DNA of 64,000 nucleotides from Podarcis cretensis (taxonomy: Eukaryota): assembly GCA_951804945.1 (NCBI GenBank), contig OX638158.1:40548001-40612000 (forward strand). The letters are read 5' to 3'. Numbering within the stretch: the stretch's first letter is position 1; every line of letters begins with the position of its first letter. Below the pieces are notes generated by a model, which had not been told where the DNA came from, did not search any database, and was given only the letters and a program-made list of their open reading frames with translations. The translations under genes and the position numbers were made by a program. Shown here piece by piece: positions 27,069 to 62,522 of the stretch.

Positions 27069-27719
27069 CTTTCAATGGTCTCTGCTCAAATGCCCCTAAT
27101 CAGGACTGATTCTGCAAGAGCTCTCACCTCCTACTTGTCCCACTCCAAGACTTAGTAACTTACTTTAAGGGCAGAACAAGGCAGCACTATAATAACTAGA
27201 TTTTTAAAGCCTCATCTTTGACCTGCCATCTCTGCTGCATTTGGTCCAAGGCTCCACCCCACATACAATAAATTAAGGAGAGGAATGCCAACTTGGCCCT
27301 GCAACCATGGGTGCCTGGGGCCATGGGTGCCATGTAAGTGCATAGCCCTGGCACTGAAATTTGTGGGTGCCCACAATGTTAAGTTTGGATGGCATGACTG
27401 TATGTGGTGTGACAAAGCCAAAATATATAAGACCTTCTCCAATCATGTGACTAGGAAAAATCTAAACAGAGTTTGGGGAAAACGTAAGTAGTTACTTGAA
27501 AGGGGGACACCTTTGTGGCTGTTGCCAATAGAAGTGACAGTGAGGAAGAAGATAAATAAGGAAAATCAGTGGGGTACTAATAGAGACTTGGTGGACTTTA
27601 CAGGGGGAGAACCAAAACTGAAAAAAAATAAAAGAACTCAAAGACCAAGTGAAAGACTGACTAAATTACCCTCAACTCAATGCTAGGTTTAACATAGATT
27701 TTGAGGGGGGGGGGTTGCA

Positions 27720-28670
27720 GACCAGAGATCACAGTTTGAAATGAATTTATTAGGTTGCAAGGTTAAAATTCTTTCTAAAATGTACAAACTATTACTGGAT
27801 AGGAAATGATGGAGGAGTTGGTCAAGTCATCAATGATTTAGTTGGGCTAGGGATATGGAACACAATATTAATTTAAACTTATGGGAACATCTATGGACAA
27901 ACAACTTCAAATTCATGGCATGCTATACTTTAAAGAAAAATCATCTAAAGATGGTCCACAGGTGGTATTTAACACCAAATAGGCTGGCAAAGATGTTTAA
28001 ATCATAGAGTGATAAATGCTAGAAGTGTAAGTGTAAAAAACACACCAATAGGAACATTTTACCACATGTGTTGATCTTGCAGTGTGATTAAAGAATATTG
28101 AGAAACAATTTGATTGTTCTTTAAAAGCCCCAAGTTATTCCTCCTAGGCATAACAACATCTGAAGTCCCAAAGAACCAAATGAGTCTGATGCTGTATGCA
28201 ACCACAGCTGATTGGATTTTACTGGCACAAAAGTGGAAAACGGACGCAGTGCCAAAAAAAGATGAGTGGCATCACAAATTGTTGGAATATGTAGAGTTTG
28301 CAGCTATGACAAATAGAACAAGAAAAGAGGTGACAAAAGCTTAAGTGTGGTGTAGTGGTGTAGTGTTAAGAGCGGTATACTCGTAATCTGGTGAACCGGG
28401 TTTGCATCCCTGCTCCTCCACATGCTGCTGCTGGGTGATCTTGGGCCAGTCACACTTCTTTGAAGTCTCTCAGCCCCACTCACCTCACAGAGTGTTTGTT
28501 GTGGGGGGAGGAAGGGAAAGGAGAATGTTAGCCACTTTGAGACTCCTTCAGGTAGTGATAAAGCAGGATATCAAATCCAAACTCTTCTTCTTAAGGAAGA
28601 ATGAAAGTTATATATGGAATATATGAAATAACATTGTAACAAGATAATTAACCTGGCAGGATGTGAGTAG
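27720..28670 (+). mobile_element. L1 LINE ORF2 C-terminal fossil, interrupted by a SINE
   Basis: Broken translation KILSKMYKLLL...LWEHLW...KMVHRWYLTPNRLAKMF...KC*KC...GTFYHMC*SC (CCHC knuckle) ...LFLLGI...LAQKWK...EW; ORF 28114-28344 is part of it. Confidence 0.85.
28346..28589 (+). mobile_element. Squam3-like (MIR/Ther1-derived) SINE
   Basis: tRNA-like head tgtggtgtagtg..ttaagagc, CORE 'gggtgatcttgggccagtcac', L2-like tail ending (CTT)n; TSD cttaag at 28340-28345 and 28590-28595. Confidence 0.8.
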
Positions 28671-30869: not shown

Positions 30870-32240
30870 TTTTAATTCCTGGCTGCTCCCCGCACCTTGA
30901 TAATCAGCAGAATTAAATACTGGATACTGTTATAGCTATATTATGATGGATCGATTAAAAGGAAAAGCCTAAAGAGATTCTCTAATAAATACAATCCAGT
31001 TCTATAATGAAATCTCCATGGGGGATCTATTCCTCATGTTTTCTTGATAAGAATTTTAAAAATTCTAATTAATCCAAAAATTATATTAAGCAGTATAAAT
31101 ATTGCTCCCCTCATACTTTTCTCTGCCTTTTACATTTATTCTCATCCTCTTCATTCTGCTGGTTCGATATGGCGTGTAAAACCCTGACTTTTCTGTTCTT
31201 TCCTTAACTTATCAAGTTTTCATTGTGATATCTTACCTATGAATTCTCCTCCCCTGATATCCATACTGATTCATCTATTTCCACTTCCAAAAGAACTTGT
31301 TGAAACATACATATTGTTGTTGTTTAGTCATTCAGTCGTGTCCGACTCTTCGTGACCCCATGGACCAGAGCACGCCAGGCACTCCTGTCTTCCACTGCCT
31401 CTCACAGTTTGGTCAAACTCATGCTGGTAGCTTCGAGAACACTATCCAACCATCTCATCCTCTGTCGTCCCCTTCTCCTTGTGCCCTCCATCTTACCCAG
31501 CATCAGGGCTGATTTCCTTCAGAATGGATAGGTTTGATCTTCTTGCAGTCCATGGGACTCTCAAGAGTCTCCTCCAGCACCATAATTCAAAAGCATCAAT
31601 TCTTTGGCAATCAGCCTTCTTTATGGTTCAGCTCTCACTTCCATACATCACTACTGGGAAAACCATAGCTTTAACTATACGGACCTTTGTTGGCAAGGTG
31701 ATGTCTCTGCTTTTTAAGATGCTGCCTAGGTTTGTCATTGCTTTTCTCCCAAGAAGCAGGCTTCTTTTAATTTCGTGGCTACTGTCACCATCTGCAGTGA
31801 TCATGGAGCCCAAGAAAGTAAAATCTCTCACTGCCTCCATTTCTTCCCCTTCTATCTGCCAAGAGGTGATGGGACCAGTGGCCATGATCTTCGGTTTTTT
31901 GATGTTGAGCTTCAGACCATATTTTGCACTCTCCTGTTTCACCCTCATTAAAAGGTTCTCTATTTTCCCCCTAATATTGGATGGAATGAAATCTTTGATA
32001 GTATCTGCAAGAGGCTTTTTTCCTGCAGAGTACAGTGATCAATTGGGTGTATAAAGGATGATATAAACTTCTAGGTATCCTAGTCCTAAACTAAGATTTC
32101 TTTAACTATTGTGTACTAATGTTGAATATATTTTCAACTTGTAAAATAAAAACTAAAGTTTAAAACATTTACATCTTCCTCTCTTAAAAATATTGTTTTC
32201 TTCCTCCATTTCCTCTGAACCATCCAGCTCTTCATCTCCT
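30870..32240 (-). mobile_element. Highly decayed L1 ORF2 C-terminal fossil split by BovB
   Basis: Minus-strand remnants ILSKI, LEVEIDESVW, YRT...RM...NKCKR are colinear with the 27720-28670 L1; heavily frameshifted. Confidence 0.45.
31314..31959 (-). mobile_element. RTE-BovB LINE, 5'-truncated, with internal deletion
   Basis: ORF 31628-31948 (GLKLNIKK.KIMATGPITSWQIEGEEME.V.DF.FLGS...VFPVVMYG.ES) is the BovB RT C-terminus, followed by RIDAFELWCWRRLLRVPWTARRSN; (CAA)n tail at 31314. Confidence 0.95.
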
Positions 32241-37939: not shown

Positions 37940-38105
37940 CATGGCCATTATGGCTAGCAACCATTCATATCCTTATCTCCTGTGAATTTGTCTAAGCCTC
38001 TTTTAAAGCCATCCAAGTTGAGGACCAACACTTTCTCTTGTGGGAATCAATTCCATAGTTTAACAATGTCTTGTGTGAAGGAGAGCTTTGCTTTATCCTG
38101 AATCT
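37940..38105 (-). mobile_element. Old CR1 3' fragment
   Basis: 'tgaatttgtctaagcctcttttaaagccatccaagtt...aattccatagtttaac' is the antisense of CR1 ...VKLWN.....LDGFKRGLDKF. Confidence 0.7.
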
Positions 38106-38607
38106 TCACACAATAGGTCCCTATGCAAGGTACTTTGTTTTTTGAAGGTTGGTGCTCCTCCAACCCTGCCAAGCATCAAAACTAGAACACCCCAGTAGCA
38201 CAGGGAACACCTCAGCAGAACGGATTTTGAAAAATAAAAATTGACAAATTATTGGGAGCAGGGGTAAAAGCTATTGGGGCAGCGGTAAAAGCTCTCTTAC
38301 ATGCCACGGGTTAGTCATTCCTGTTCTATATAACCAACCCCATTTTCATGACAGATAAGCTGGAAGGAGGCAAAGTGGTCACATCTATGTAATGGGGGGC
38401 ACTTTGAGGAGATTGTAGTGTAGCTTGCCAAATGAAACAATAAGGCTTCTTTGTGTCATGGGAATTACATGCAGAATTACATGTGAGGCAAGTCATGTAA
38501 TTCCCAAAACATGAAGAAGCCACCATAGGGAATGAAAGCCATTTCAGCTGGTCCTCTTGTGCCTGATACATAGCTGTCAACTTACAGATTTGAAAATAAG
38601 GGACCAG

Positions 38608-39040
38608 AGGGACTTCCGGGTTGGCGCCATCGCCGAATGGCGGACTCCCTCCGAGCTCCGGAGGGAGCCTGCTCGGCAGGGGCTGGGTCCTACCGCACCG
38701 GCGACGCGGGGACCCTCAAAAACCATGGGCGCTGAAACCCATGGACATGGTGACTCGGCTGGCACCTTTTGCGCCCCCCCGACCCGCGAAGGAGCCTTTT
38801 TAAAGGCTGCGGAGCGGGTGACGGGGGGTGGTGCTTTGAGTCCTTCGCTTCCCCTGCCGAGCGAAGCCGCATGCCATTCAACGGAGAGCGCTGACTTCTT
38901 CTATTGAAAATCTGGACTCAAAAGAATAACCCGTGAGTAATCGGAACCTGGACTAAAAAGGGGGATAATTTTTTTAAAAAAAATTTGGAGCGAGCGGGGG
39001 AGGCGCAAAAAGGAAGTCACCCCCCCCCCCGTTGTAGAAG
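38608..39040 (+). promoter_or_regulatory. CpG-island-like internal promoter region of the retroposon
   Basis: Roughly 25-30 CpGs in the first ~280 bp by hand count in an otherwise CpG-poor window; ETS motif acttccgg; YY1-like atggcgg; splice-donor-like gtgagt at 38933. Confidence 0.6.
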
Positions 39041-40263
39041 AGTTAAAGCAAAGGATTTGACAACTAAGATCGAGTGCAACCCTATTTTGACAAAGTTATT
39101 AACTTCGCGAGGGAAAATCATAAGACTGAGCTGGAGGAGAAAGGTGGAATTGAATTAAAAAGCAACCCCCCCCGGAACCCTGGGAGCGATTTGTGAGAGC
39201 GCCGGGAGAAGAGAAATAGAGGTTTTGACAGCTGTCAAAGAGCTGTCAAAGCGGAAGAATAAAATAGAGATCTTTGTTACGAGGACTTTGCCGGTTACAT
39301 TTGTTATAAATTGGATACAAATTGTTACAAACAAGGAATAACAAGTTATTTTGACTGGTGGACGTGATCTGGAAGGGAATTTAGTTATTGCAATCCACCT
39401 AGAGGAGCCGAGGGACATTACAAGTATTGTTGGCGTGGAATTTGACCAGAACTTTCTATCTCCTGGGAAACTGCAGAAATGGAACACTATTTTGTCTACA
39501 GAGGTCTACGCACTAAAGGAGACAATAGATTTATCTATTGAAGAATGAAAAGGACTTGACGTAATGTTTTGTTCTTGAATAACAAGCCTCTGCAGAGGAA
39601 TTAGAAGCTTTTGGAATTGGAACATTTGTGCAGGAGAGCAGGGAAAAAGAAAAAAAAAGGAGTGAGATCAACAAGAACAACAAAAATAATAAGAATTGGA
39701 CAAAGTTGGAAGTGGGAACATTTGGGACATCCAGATTTGACAGGTTTAAAGGAATAAAATTGGAGCTTACACCCCTAGATATAAAAATCTGGATGGAAGA
39801 AATGGGCCTTTTTTGAGACAGACTCCTTCCAAGATTGGACATTCGAAACTAAAGATGACTGGGAAAGGACTATGGTTTAGAGAGATGTGGGAACTCCAGG
39901 AAGATATCAGACGTCGAGGAACATTGGGAACGCAACCGGGAAAGGGGGGAGGGAAATTTGGAATCCAAAGGGCGTAAAATTATTTTTTTTATTTTTCTTC
40001 TATTGTAATCTGTATTGCATATTAAAGGGGGGAACTCGCGGAAGGGAATAGGTCGATTTTAGGGGATGGGAAAATATTTCTAAAATTGAGTCAATGATAA
40101 TAAGTTTAAATTTGGGATAAGAACTTGTTGAAATTCTTTTTTGTTTATTTGTAAGAATTGGAATACAGGAGGGGGAGGGGAGGGGAAGTCCTGAAAAGAT
40201 GTTATTGGGAAAAAGGTTTTATGGAAAATCTTAATAAATATCATTAAAAAAAAAAGAAAGAAA
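38608..40263 (+). mobile_element. Full-length non-autonomous L1-like retroposon (1656 bp)
   Basis: 16-bp TSD gaaaataagggaccag (38592-38607, 40264-40279); CpG-rich 5' end starting gggacttccgg...atggcgg; A-rich sense strand; G-tract 40168-40185; AATAAA 40233; A10 tail 40246-40255; no long ORF. Confidence 0.8.
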
Positions 40264-43094
40264 GAAAATAAGGGACCAGCAGCCTTGAAAATAAGGGATC
40301 AGCAGCCAAAATAAGGGATTTTCCAAACACAGGTATGTTCAACCTCTGAGCCCCTCCAAGCCAAAGGCAGAAAGCCCAACCAGCAGCCAAACAAAGCCTC
40401 AAGCCTCAAGGAAAACCACCGTCACCTCTCCGCTGGGAAGCGCTGAGCAAAGGCAAGTCCCCAGGCAACGCAGCCGATTTGATCAGCACAAGGCAAGCAA
40501 GCTCCACCCCCCAGTCGTTCTTAGACTTCTTATTAGGTGAGCAGCGCAGCCAAGCAACACAGTTGGAGCCACCCTCCCCCCTGGCCGGCAGGGAGGGAGG
40601 GAGAGGAGCTGCTTCCTTTGAAACCTGGGAAATTTAAGGGACATCATCAATAAGTGACAGCAGTGGGACATGGCTCTGGGATTTGTCCCGCCAAATAAGG
40701 GACACTTGACAGCTATGGCCTGGTATAACATGTTGGCTGGCCCTAATTTGCCTTGGATCAGATTAAGCAGATGGAATTAGTGCAGAGGCTGTCACTCCAA
40801 GATGATGATGATGATAATGTTCAAGTAATAGGATCATACTAGGAAATTCTTGAGTGAATTTTTTGCATTTTGACAGCATGTATATGCATCAATATGGTGC
40901 AAGATAATACAAATGATGCAAATCAGATCTTGAAGGCCATTGTATTGGCTAGATTGAGGACTATATTTGAGAATTTTAAGAGCGCCCTTTTGCACACTCA
41001 AATATGTGAGTATATATTTGTCAGGGAAGCCATCTGGGACTGATTTTGGTCATGGAATAGTACTTAAAAGTGAACTAATGCAAACAAGGAAAGGGAATAG
41101 AGGCAGGTGATGTAATGTACAGCCCTCTAAAGGGGTGCATTAAAGCATGATTTATGTAGCACCTACTAAGCCTTATTGTTTTATTTTGCAAGCCACACTA
41201 CAGTGTCTTAACAGTGCCCTCCACTACATAGATGCAACCGCTCTACATGCTTACAGCTTTTTTGTCATGAAAATGGAGTAGAAGATGTAACTGCAAAAGT
41301 GGGATGATCTAGATTAGGGATGGCTAGTCTGTAGCCTATAGGCCAAATCTGGTCCATAATGGGATTTTTACACCCCATCCCCAAGATTCCCAATAATTTG
41401 TCAAATTTAATTTCTCACCAAAAAATTTTCTGCTGAGGTTTTCTCCACTGTGGTGCTGGGGTGTTCCAGCTGTGATGCTGGGGGGAGGGGAGGGGACCAG
41501 CCTTCCACAAACCAGGTGTCTCTGCTTCATTTTACCTTGCAAACGCACCTCTTGTCTGAAGATTCAGGACAAAAGAAAGTACTTCTTCCCACTATGAAAT
41601 GCACTCCCACAAGACACAATATCGGTCCCCAACTTAGATGGCTTTAAAAGAGGCTTGGTGTGTTAAAAATGGTCTTTTGAATTAATTTCCTGTCCCTGTC
41701 AGTGAAAATTCCTTCTGAAATGCACATTTATTTTATTATTGAGTCTGTATTGGGTAAGTAAGCCAAATATGAAAGGAGATGGAAACGGGGTTGTGCCAAC
41801 AACAGAATTAGTCACCGGCACAGCATAACCTGCCCTTCTGATGTCAGCTTTCCTGAGGGACGCATGTTGGAACTGAAAGGAGACCAAGGCCTACTATGAG
41901 AGAGATCTGGCTGTGCCACTGAACTCAGCCGGTTTTACTTGAGACATGTTTCTTGACTGGGTCTCAGTCAAAATGTTGTGGAATAATACAGACGATTAGT
42001 AATAAATTTGTACCTCATTATCACACCCCTGTTACAACATGGAACATTATTTTAATGCTACATGGAATAATATCAAATTGGGTTCATAGAAGCAAAGTTG
42101 GAAGGGGTCTAATGCCCTTTGTGAAGACCAGCTGAAATAGCTTCCATTCCATATGGTGGCTTCTTCAGACTGCAGAACTTGTATCACATGGAGAATCTGC
42201 AAGTTGCCTTCAAAGCTACCAAAAGCTTCTGATAGTTGTGCAGAGACTCCAGATCCTCCTCTGGTGGTGTTGGTGACAAGGATGAATTGCATGGTCAGCA
42301 ATGCTTCACAGCATGTCAAGAGAAAGGTGGGGTTGCTCCACATGTGTTTGAAGTAACTTCCATGCAAGTCTGGACCTCACTTTCCAACTTTTGGCAGGGG
42401 ATTTGAACATAAAGGCATACCTTCCCATCCCTGAGACTCCATTTACAGCTGGGTGACCCAAGTACAAAATATATTGTGTTCCATGCCAGTTGTGAAAGGT
42501 ACATCTGCACATTTAGAAGGACAAATGGTGGATACATATGTGTTCCCTTCAAAGCTCTAACTGCTACTGAACAATCATAAATGCATTTAATGTGTGGGAT
42601 TGAACATTATCTCCACTCAACCATACTAGTTTCAGTGCACAAATGCATCTTATACTGAAGAATGCAGACCCACATAGCAGAAATAAAAGGAAGGGAAGAT
42701 TGCACCCCAACATAAAAAATATACATGGCTGTGATACTACACAGACTGGTAAGTGCTTTCTCAGTGTAACAACATCTTGTTACTGAAAAAATTCAATGCT
42801 TTCTCATTGCCAATATGATTAACATAATAAATTCAAAATTATACATACAATAAGTCCGATAAAAATAATTGATTAATACAGTAGGTTATATACAATATAG
42901 CAGATGTTTATAAATATAACATAATGTTAATTACTTATGATTGATAGAGTAAGAAATTTATTTTCAGGATTACATATATGTACACCATTATATTCAATAT
43001 TTCAACTTATTATGTCTGTTTTGCAGCTTATATGTAGTATATTTTCTAATTAAAAAACCCCAAAAGAACACTTTACCACCTCATCCATTTAGGG

Positions 43095-61154: not shown

Positions 61155-62522
61155 TTCCCCTCTCTTTTTCTTTTTCTTTTTCTTTTGTTTTTTCTTTCTT
61201 TCTTGCTATCTTTCCTTTTTATTCTGGAAAATTTTTAATAAATATTATTAAAAAATAAATAAAAATAAAATCTTCCACAGAACAAAGCACAGAAGGATGC
61301 TGTGGAAGGTTGCTTGGAATTTATCGCTTGCCGAGTACAGAGATGTTCTTCTCTGTTGCTGCCAGACACCATTAATGCACACGCTGTTTGTTTTAACGTG
61401 ATACACAATGGTTGCATTTTGGTGAGGACTGTTGATGTGCCTGGAAGTCTCAAGAAATAACAGCTTTTTTCATTTAAAAAATGAACAGGTTTGTTTTTTT
61501 AATCTCGATGTTTCTGAAAGTTTTGAAGCACATTTTATTTTATTTTTTATTTTTAAAAAATATTTATATATGACTGTATCATACATCACAGCAGTTTACA
61601 ACAATATAAAAACATAAAACCAAACAAAAGAATCACAAAAAGTTTTTTAAAAAAGCAAGAAGAAATTAAAACCAAACACCAATGGACCATTGTGGGGGAT
61701 GTACTGTGAATTGCCTGCACAGGCCTGACATGGGAAGTCATTATGAACAAGAGAGCATGTACAGAGTACATTTTCCTCACTGACAAATCAAGGGTCGCTC
61801 CCCACCCACCTTCTAACAGTTGCATTCAAGCAGCAGGCCTTCCCCTCTCTTTTTCTGTGGCATTGACTGAGTGCTCACAGCTGCCTGCCTCTTCTGCCTT
61901 TTATCTTAGGGCAGAGGAAGCTTTCAGGTAACCTGTTGCCTGATCAGAGCACATTTCCTCCTCTGGGTCATGTGTAGAAGTAGGTGTCATGCTGCTTTTG
62001 TAAACAGCCTCATGAAGTCATAAGGGATGTGAGAAACAGTACGCGCTGCTGCAGCTGCTTCTCCTACAATTGTTTTCTCTTTGATATTTCCAGCTCTGGT
62101 GCCAAGAGGTTTGTCCGTGTTGACCAAGCTGCTTTGTGCTATGCTTCAGCTAGAGGCTGAAAGGAAACAGCTCCAAGCCATGGTTGATATCAGTAACATG
62201 TTACCCGAGTCCAATTATAATTAGACTTTCCCCAGGATGAACCTCCAAATCCTTTGCTGTCTTCCCCCTTCCCCGCACTTCCCTCGTGTTGAAAGGGGGA
62301 TGCAAGATTTACAAAGAAAAACAATTGGTACTGTCTGATGCCTCTGCACCTTCTGTGCTGGCCATGGGAAATCCCTTCTATCATTCTGTTCAGCTGAATC
62401 TGGAATGCATACTTTCTGGATGATAATCCTGGAATCGAAAACCAGTCAAAGAGCCAAACATTAAACTAATGTGCATGCAGTGTAAAGAAGCAGGCCGGCC
62501 CTTTCAGCAGCAACCCTATACT

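Follow-up and report, generated by a model that had tools for sequence, protein, structure and literature searches.

A young ORF-less retroposon with L1-type ends in the Podarcis cretensis genome, and its short HAL1-like relatives

The 64,000-nucleotide stretch of the Podarcis cretensis genome analysed here (contig OX638158.1, positions 40,548,001 to 40,612,000; hereafter the window) carries a 1656-bp insert at 38608-40263, which lies inside a non-autonomous DNA transposon and is flanked by an exact 16-bp duplication, GAAAATAAGGGACCAG. The features of the locus, in window coordinates, are as follows.

38569..40717, no strand assigned: non-autonomous DNA transposon that hosts the insert, 477 bp long once the latter is subtracted, with a 12-bp terminal inverted repeat and an 8-bp duplication
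38592..38607, plus strand: left target-site duplication, 16 bp, identical to 40264-40279 and single in other host-repeat copies
38608..40263, plus strand: the whole ORF-less L1-derived retroposon, full-length, 1656 bp, with near-full-length copies at 94-98%
38611..38643, plus strand: L1 head, GACTTCCGG then AATGGCGG, resembling the lizard clade-1 L1 consensus
38608..39425, plus strand: L1-type 5' UTR with a CpG island, from identity to L1 5' UTRs and the CpG observed/expected ratio
39426..39904, plus strand: dead, shortened ORF1, aligned to ORF-bearing sisters at 64%
39905..40020, ends approximate, plus strand: likely ORF2 relic, the eroded last ~44 codons, aligned through intermediates only
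40021..40245, plus strand: L1-type 3' UTR, with weak similarity to L1 3' UTRs and a motif conserved across sublineages
40246..40263, plus strand: A-rich tail, read from the sequence
40264..40279, plus strand: right target-site duplication, identical to 38592-38607

The first 300 bp of the insert have a GC content of 0.65 and a CpG observed/expected ratio of 0.88, and over the first 500 bp (38608-39107) this ratio reaches 0.93, as compared to 0.19 for the whole window. The head motifs start at 38611 (GACTTCCGG) and 38636 (AATGGCGG); we take them to be ETS-like and YY1-like, respectively. The head is likely to be a transcription-start module, and the region 38608-39425 is predicted to function as an internal Pol II promoter. 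Towards the 3' end, a G-tract begins at 40160 and is followed by AATAAA (40233-40238) and the A-rich tail. The insert length, the exact direct repeat, the CpG-dense start and the 3'-terminal signals all agree with what the earlier note had described. The longest sense stop-to-stop frame wholly within the insert is shorter than 80 aa, and a Pfam search of the 58 window frames of at least 88 aa detected no host exon, although short exons would escape such a search. A splice-donor-like element, CCCGTGAGTA (38930-38939), is invariant in 12 sublineage representatives and is found too in one autonomous L1 5' UTR; it may point to an intron in the 5' UTR or to a binding site.

The host transposon, which we assume to be of hAT type from the length of its duplication (38561-38568 and 40718-40725, matching at 7/8 positions), is a MITE that is high-copy in contigs, and both insert junctions fall inside it. 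A caveat had been raised that the 16-bp motif might simply be a subterminal repeat unit of this MITE, but all that the host units share with the 16-mer is a 10-bp core, AAATAAGGGA. In contigs of other host-repeat copies position 38607 runs directly into 40280-type sequence (3 runs), and the 16-mer is single in contigs of uninterrupted copies. Since other host copies cross the site with one 16-mer, the duplication around the insert is real. The MITE and its insert are themselves surrounded by older inverted repeats, one pair at 37994-38448 and 41168-41656 (66%) and a second at 38512-38556 and 42123-42167 (91%). Elsewhere in the window we found an 81-bp 3' stub of the ORF-less family (61184-61264, 96% to the L051 sublineage), a decayed 3' fragment of an L1 ORF2 (27351-28323, 38-41% to a local ORF2) and a 207-aa frame (31431-32051) that presumably resembles the antisense of an RTE-type LINE.

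A genome search with the insert returned 3775 candidates, of which 40 were scored: all 40, the window copy included, are near full length, with the other 39 matching at 94-98%. The exact 21-nt 5' head occurs 630 times in the genome and the 3' motif of the family has 1097 matches, with none in either control. A target-site duplication was recovered in 79/97 head-bearing copies tested, and all 79 duplications differ; they measure 10-24 bp (mode 17 bp), and T or C precedes them in 67 of the 79 copies. The head is kept in 49/58 consecutive 3'-motif rows on one contig, 3 of the others being nearly complete and 6 truncated, in a count that misses stubs below about 150 bp. The earlier note had anticipated a recurrent structure of about 1.65 kb with distinct duplications, and such a structure does recur. 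Of the outcomes that it had named as refuting, neither a single copy, nor a host mRNA match, nor a one-off deletion of a full L1 occurred.

Aligning 34 further copies with the window copy revealed at least 10 sublineages that are 75-95% alike, with 96-99% identity within a sublineage where more than one copy was sampled. The window copy differs by 0.67% from the majority of its subfamily, in keeping with the young insertion proposed before, and its 30 closest copies mostly lie within about 1% of that majority (maximum 2.3%). In the six short-element lineages sampled, the median distance from the lineage's own majority is 0.6-1.7%, as compared to 1.1% for L1, in samples that are best-hit sets biased towards young copies except for the L037, L058 and L051 groups. 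Judged by these divergences, the insert's family is young. Two pairs of loci, L006/L007 (C2, 20 kb apart) and L213/L216, share flanks or frames and are likely segmental duplications and not separate insertions. Contigs of the element occur also in runs that carry other organism labels; in one run, guessed to be RNA, they cover 18/30 bins, which is not evidence of expression.

Three simpler readings of the insert were rejected. A single event is incompatible with the family of near-full-length copies, and a processed pseudogene of a host mRNA with the multi-copy family and its L1-type ends. A Pol III-transcribed SINE was dismissed for want of a tRNA, 7SL or 5S RNA head: Rfam gave no match to any of these at E<=1, and its 3 weak, unrelated matches were far below cut-off.

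Both ends of the insert point to L1. Over its first ~330-450 nt it matches the 5' UTR of 20/20 autonomous L1 loci at 63-71% identity, and its 5' UTR is 74% identical to that of the ORF-bearing sister L187. The 3' end resembles L1 3' UTRs weakly, at about 60-80% in short blocks. L1-type ends without endonuclease or reverse transcriptase (RT), as surmised from the letters of the insert, are what we find. In lizard clade-1 L1 the head consensus is GACTTCCGGTGN8ATGGCG (PMC5381506), and such elements, as described there, share with the insert this head, a long CpG-bearing 5' UTR and an A/T-rich 3' UTR. The CpG count is also alike (58 in the insert, an average of 56 in the L1s), whereas the insert measures 1.66 kb and has no ORFs, as compared to about 6.4 kb for the L1s (PMC5381506).

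A relaxed head pattern matched 4544 genome sites, as compared to 4 for controls. No 6-kb L1 was found among 38 head-anchored or 40 tail-anchored family loci, and among only 20 L1 loci compared no close partner emerged, the best 5' identity being the 71% given above. An intact L1 is present locally, with an ORF2 of 1247 aa that includes endonuclease and RT, and intact young L1s are possible helpers for the ORF-less family. We considered whether another LINE clade mobilises the family, since none of the 20 loci offered an L1 partner with a matching 3' end and the flanks of copies contain frames resembling other LINEs, which we take to be RTE/BovB, L2 and CR1. These LINEs usually need their own 3' tail, and a tail of that type is absent from the family. 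The poly-A tail, the 10-24-bp duplications, the T|A-rich sites and the L1-derived ends also speak against another clade, and we judge its involvement very unlikely.

The earlier note had listed short ORFs in the insert; aligned to ORF-bearing sisters, they prove to be remnants of a dead ORF1 and not chance frames. Profile matches to this ORF1 fall on 3 sense frames and on no antisense frame. The lesions in 39426-39904 comprise the change of the ATG to ATT, a 14-bp and a 1-bp deletion, a deletion of ~170 bp and further frameshifts, and a TGA stop lies at 39546-39548. Direct tblastn of the ORF1 and ORF2 of one L1 against the family gave nothing significant; homology became visible only by way of intermediates. 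The suggested check with the Pfam model Transposase_22 gave no genome match, and its control was blank too; since the model missed intact local L1 ORF1s, this test is uninformative here.

The 14-bp and 1-bp deletions are common to 29/30 closest copies (1 was unscored), and since these lesions are shared, the source copy was already broken, as had been inferred before. Among the 110 copies examined more widely, 73 have both deletions, 28 lack them and are disrupted in other ways, and a further 9 went unscored. Within the ORF span, indel lengths are multiples of 3 in 13/13 cases in three ORF-bearing sisters, which were chosen for open frames and share some indels, versus 3/15 in the window copy. 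One could suppose that the family consists of normal HAL1 elements in which the ORF broke down once they had inserted, given their descent from ORF1-bearing short elements and the individual breakage seen in some copies of ORF-bearing lineages. Yet the same deletions recur in copies mostly within about 1% of their majority, and the ancestral long frame is absent from all family copies examined; the shared lesions refute post-insertion decay, to which we give next to no probability.

To place the family among its relatives, we took a census of the first 47 heads matching the relaxed pattern on one contig, of which 7 belong to the window family by hand count and the other 40 were fetched. The latter comprise 23 short elements, 13 autonomous-type L1s and 4 others. 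With the window family included, short elements thus account for 30/47 consecutive L1-type heads, as compared to 13/47 for autonomous-type L1s, and, going by this sample, they may outnumber every other source of mobile CpG-island promoters in the genome. The 23 short elements are about 1.5-2.5 kb long (longer with a nested element) and have the layout of the window element, and in 19 of them an ATG frame of 154-216 aa lies at the same place. Across the loci L183-L222 and L223-L262 (G000 C1) there is a wide radiation of L1-headed elements of 1.5-2.5 kb with an ORF1 shortened to 154-261 aa, and this radiation is HAL1-like.

The protein of the short elements is related to ORF1 (profile against profile 92.6%, E 4.6e-7). 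It begins ~50 residues into ORF1 and is missing ~44 residues from the RRM and ~17 from the CTD, positions that were taken from a weak match to human ORF1p (E 0.04). The longest form, the 261-aa ORF of L225, is 42% identical to the ORF1 of the autonomous L1 L197 (E 7e-66) and belongs to the multi-copy L189/L225 lineage of ~2.2 kb, in which most of 20 fetched copies have shorter or broken frames. A 216-aa form is free of stops in about 123 of the 150 genomic matches listed (hand count, in a ranking that favours open frames). Protein databases hold three relatives, all unnamed, and a protein atlas yielded no match of at least 0.9. The structure predicted for the L187 protein has a mean pLDDT of 45.6, with helix 3-48 alone partly confident. 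One further locus, L183 (G000:C1:859509-860484), is a duplication-bounded element of ~1.0 kb made of an L1 5' UTR, the last ORF2 codons and a 3' UTR; it was rejected as a second ORF-less family, since the 40 candidates scored included no other copy that spans its junction.

For the short ORF, dN/dS is 0.2-0.9, mostly 0.3-0.6, as compared to about 0.1 for ORF1. The value is 0.53 in ORF-bearing lineages and 0.45 in ORF-less ones, so the groups are not separated, and neutral simulation gave medians of 0.62-0.71 with a range reaching 0.43-0.48. With the ORF-less control at its level and these neutral medians, we no longer take dN/dS to prove that the short ORF is under selection. The same figures bear on the idea that the clade still produces a fragment of the ORF1 coiled coil, 37-55 residues long, that aids entry into L1 particles. 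The dead-frame value lies below the neutral medians, but the neutral range makes it borderline. An ATG-started frame of 47-55 codons is kept in the L051, L037, L041 and L065 sublineages, the 14-bp and 1-bp deletions total 15, and the sister-protein model is confident only in the N-terminal helix. Against this, the window subfamily has the ATG in 1/30 copies (otherwise GTG) and its frame is only 37 codons long, the ATG is absent from the L058 group, and L035 has a stop after 15 codons; the window and L058 groups are expanding despite the missing ATG. We consider such a peptide, the main rival reading, unlikely.

Trees of the ORF DNA and of the 5' UTR both recover the ORF-less clade with support of 100/100. 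In the ORF-DNA tree, short and ORF-less elements together separate from L1 (100/100) and form a ladder from the 261-aa form through a 214-aa form and forms of 174-216 aa to the ORF-less clade. In the 5' UTR tree the short elements fall in two clades with L1s between them, a topology that suggests UTR exchange or a second origin. The ORF tree has very short end branches at its base (L225 0.012), as compared to about 1.8 changes per site on the path to the window copy, and yet young copies exist in every lineage of the ladder; this contrast may come from source lineages that coexist but evolve at widely differing rates, or from distances inflated by the alignment.

The short elements also share a junction. 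L189 maps on L197 as 5' UTR, ORF1, ORF2 end and 3' UTR, and 11/11 aligned short elements have the same passage from the ORF1 end into the last ~44 ORF2 codons. The identity of this ORF2 end decays from 83% to undetectable in the window copy, where the ORF2-end profile has no direct match; aligned via the intermediates L189, L211, L220, L221, L190, L206 and L187, the segment at 39905-40020 is likely the eroded end of ORF2. In one local ORF2 an AG lies beside the ancestral junction, which would allow a splice as the founding event, and one may ask whether living L1s recurrently yield spliced or deleted products that are dead ends, similar to SpIREs, with no self-propagating lineage. However, there are at least 10 sublineages, with near-identical young copies wherever more than one was sampled, none of the 20 L1 loci compared exceeds 71% identity, and the true one-off deletion, L183, has no second copy among the 40 candidates scored. 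Recurrent products of this kind are highly improbable.

We hold it very probable that the insert belongs, as a recent copy, to an ORF-less retroposon family of several lineages, composed of an L1 5' UTR, a dead, shortened ORF1 and an L1 3' end, likely transcribed from its own CpG promoter and likely copied in trans by the ORF2 enzyme of autonomous L1s in the same genome. According to the proposed history, one internal deletion would have joined the ORF1 end to the last ~44 ORF2 codons and produced a HAL1-like element; ORF1 would then have shrunk in steps (261, ~214 and 174-216 aa), with loss of RRM and CTD parts, until it was lost altogether. As for mobilisation, we infer that L1 ORF2p acts in trans: the RNA would be transcribed by Pol II from the internal CpG promoter and polyadenylated, ORF2p would be captured through the A-tail and 3' end of this short RNA, and target-primed reverse transcription would take place at pyrimidine|A-rich sites. 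With so short an RNA, the promoter would be retained in most new copies; these could then act as sources in turn, and the large number of young sublineages existing in parallel would be accounted for. ORF-bearing relatives may join L1 particles via their retained coiled coil, the window lineage apparently without one.

How does the family compare with known elements? HAL1 is, like it, a multi-copy, non-autonomous L1 derivative with a 5' UTR, a 3' end and no ORF2 (PMC5753468, PMC5786205), and its origins are placed in mammals in the account of PMC5753468. The HAL1 type fits the basal relatives found here, the L189/L225 lineage with its 261-aa ORF1. HAL1 encodes ORF1p, which PMC5786205 presents as a proposed route of half-L1 elements into helper particles, whereas the window family has lost it, with the ATG gone and shared frameshifts and stops; most short relatives, unlike HAL1, encode the N-terminally and internally shortened protein described above. 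Of the earlier guess of a HAL1-like element, descent from an ORF1-bearing HAL1-like radiation thus stands, and the ORF1p of such elements does not extend to the window family. SpIREs of human L1 are likewise internally shortened L1 retrocopies flanked by target-site duplications, but they are missing parts of the promoter or of ORF1, retain ORF2 and are described as dead ends (PMC5860796), whereas the window family keeps the promoter, has no ORF2, forms its own branching lineages and has no near-identical parent among the 20 L1 loci compared.

On its sequence features, the window family best fits a SIDE of the L1 clade. SIDEs (R2 SIDEs, PMC3414825; Persaeus from CR1, PMC6740152; RIME, NARTc, Vingi-N and Bov-A, PMC5786205) resemble it in having both LINE ends, many copies and their own duplications. 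Retention of the parental 5' and 3' ends, origin by internal deletion and amplification as a family of its own are all found here. SIDEs encode no protein; the window family, for its part, has no long frame, only the GTG-started 37-codon relic and the 47-55-codon frames in sisters. The family differs from SIDEs in its length of 1.6-2.0 kb, in the ORF1-coding stage of its origin and in its identity of 71% or less to any L1 sampled. An L1-derived SIDE was called unobserved in a 2012 paper, which explains by cis preference why internally deleted parasites without ORFs do not arise from L1 (PMC3414825). The 2018 account in PMC5786205 traces ORF-absent bipartite LINEs only to RTE, Ingi, Vingi and R2. 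In the literature covered, neither a lizard HAL1 nor an L1 SIDE is described, though a Repbase or Dfam catalogue entry may exist. We lean, with less assurance than for the reading of the insert itself, towards an undescribed L1-clade SIDE that is gene-less and overcomes cis preference. It would stand at the end of a half-L1 radiation outside mammals, in which the intermediates still alive would record the shrinking of ORF1 to a coiled-coil stub and then its vanishing, and whose full-length copies would exceed full-length L1 about two to one.

Young ORF-bearing and ORF-less forms occur here side by side, with graded intermediates between them, which makes the ideas of cis preference and of entry through ORF1p directly testable with natural variants. 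If this reading is true, the purpose of ORF1p and of cis preference could be studied in lizard L1 as a natural system. A previous L1 survey filtered on ORF2 or on an ORF1 of 800 bp or more, according to PMC5203782, and surveys filtering in this manner would miss the short elements.

Nested insertions are frequent in the short elements (L066, L186, L206, L221, L050, L054, L035, L133 and L067). L066 contains a whole L1, L206 and L221 contain 3' L1 pieces that are 95-97% like L185, and L050 contains a second family copy; other repeats are nested in short elements as well.
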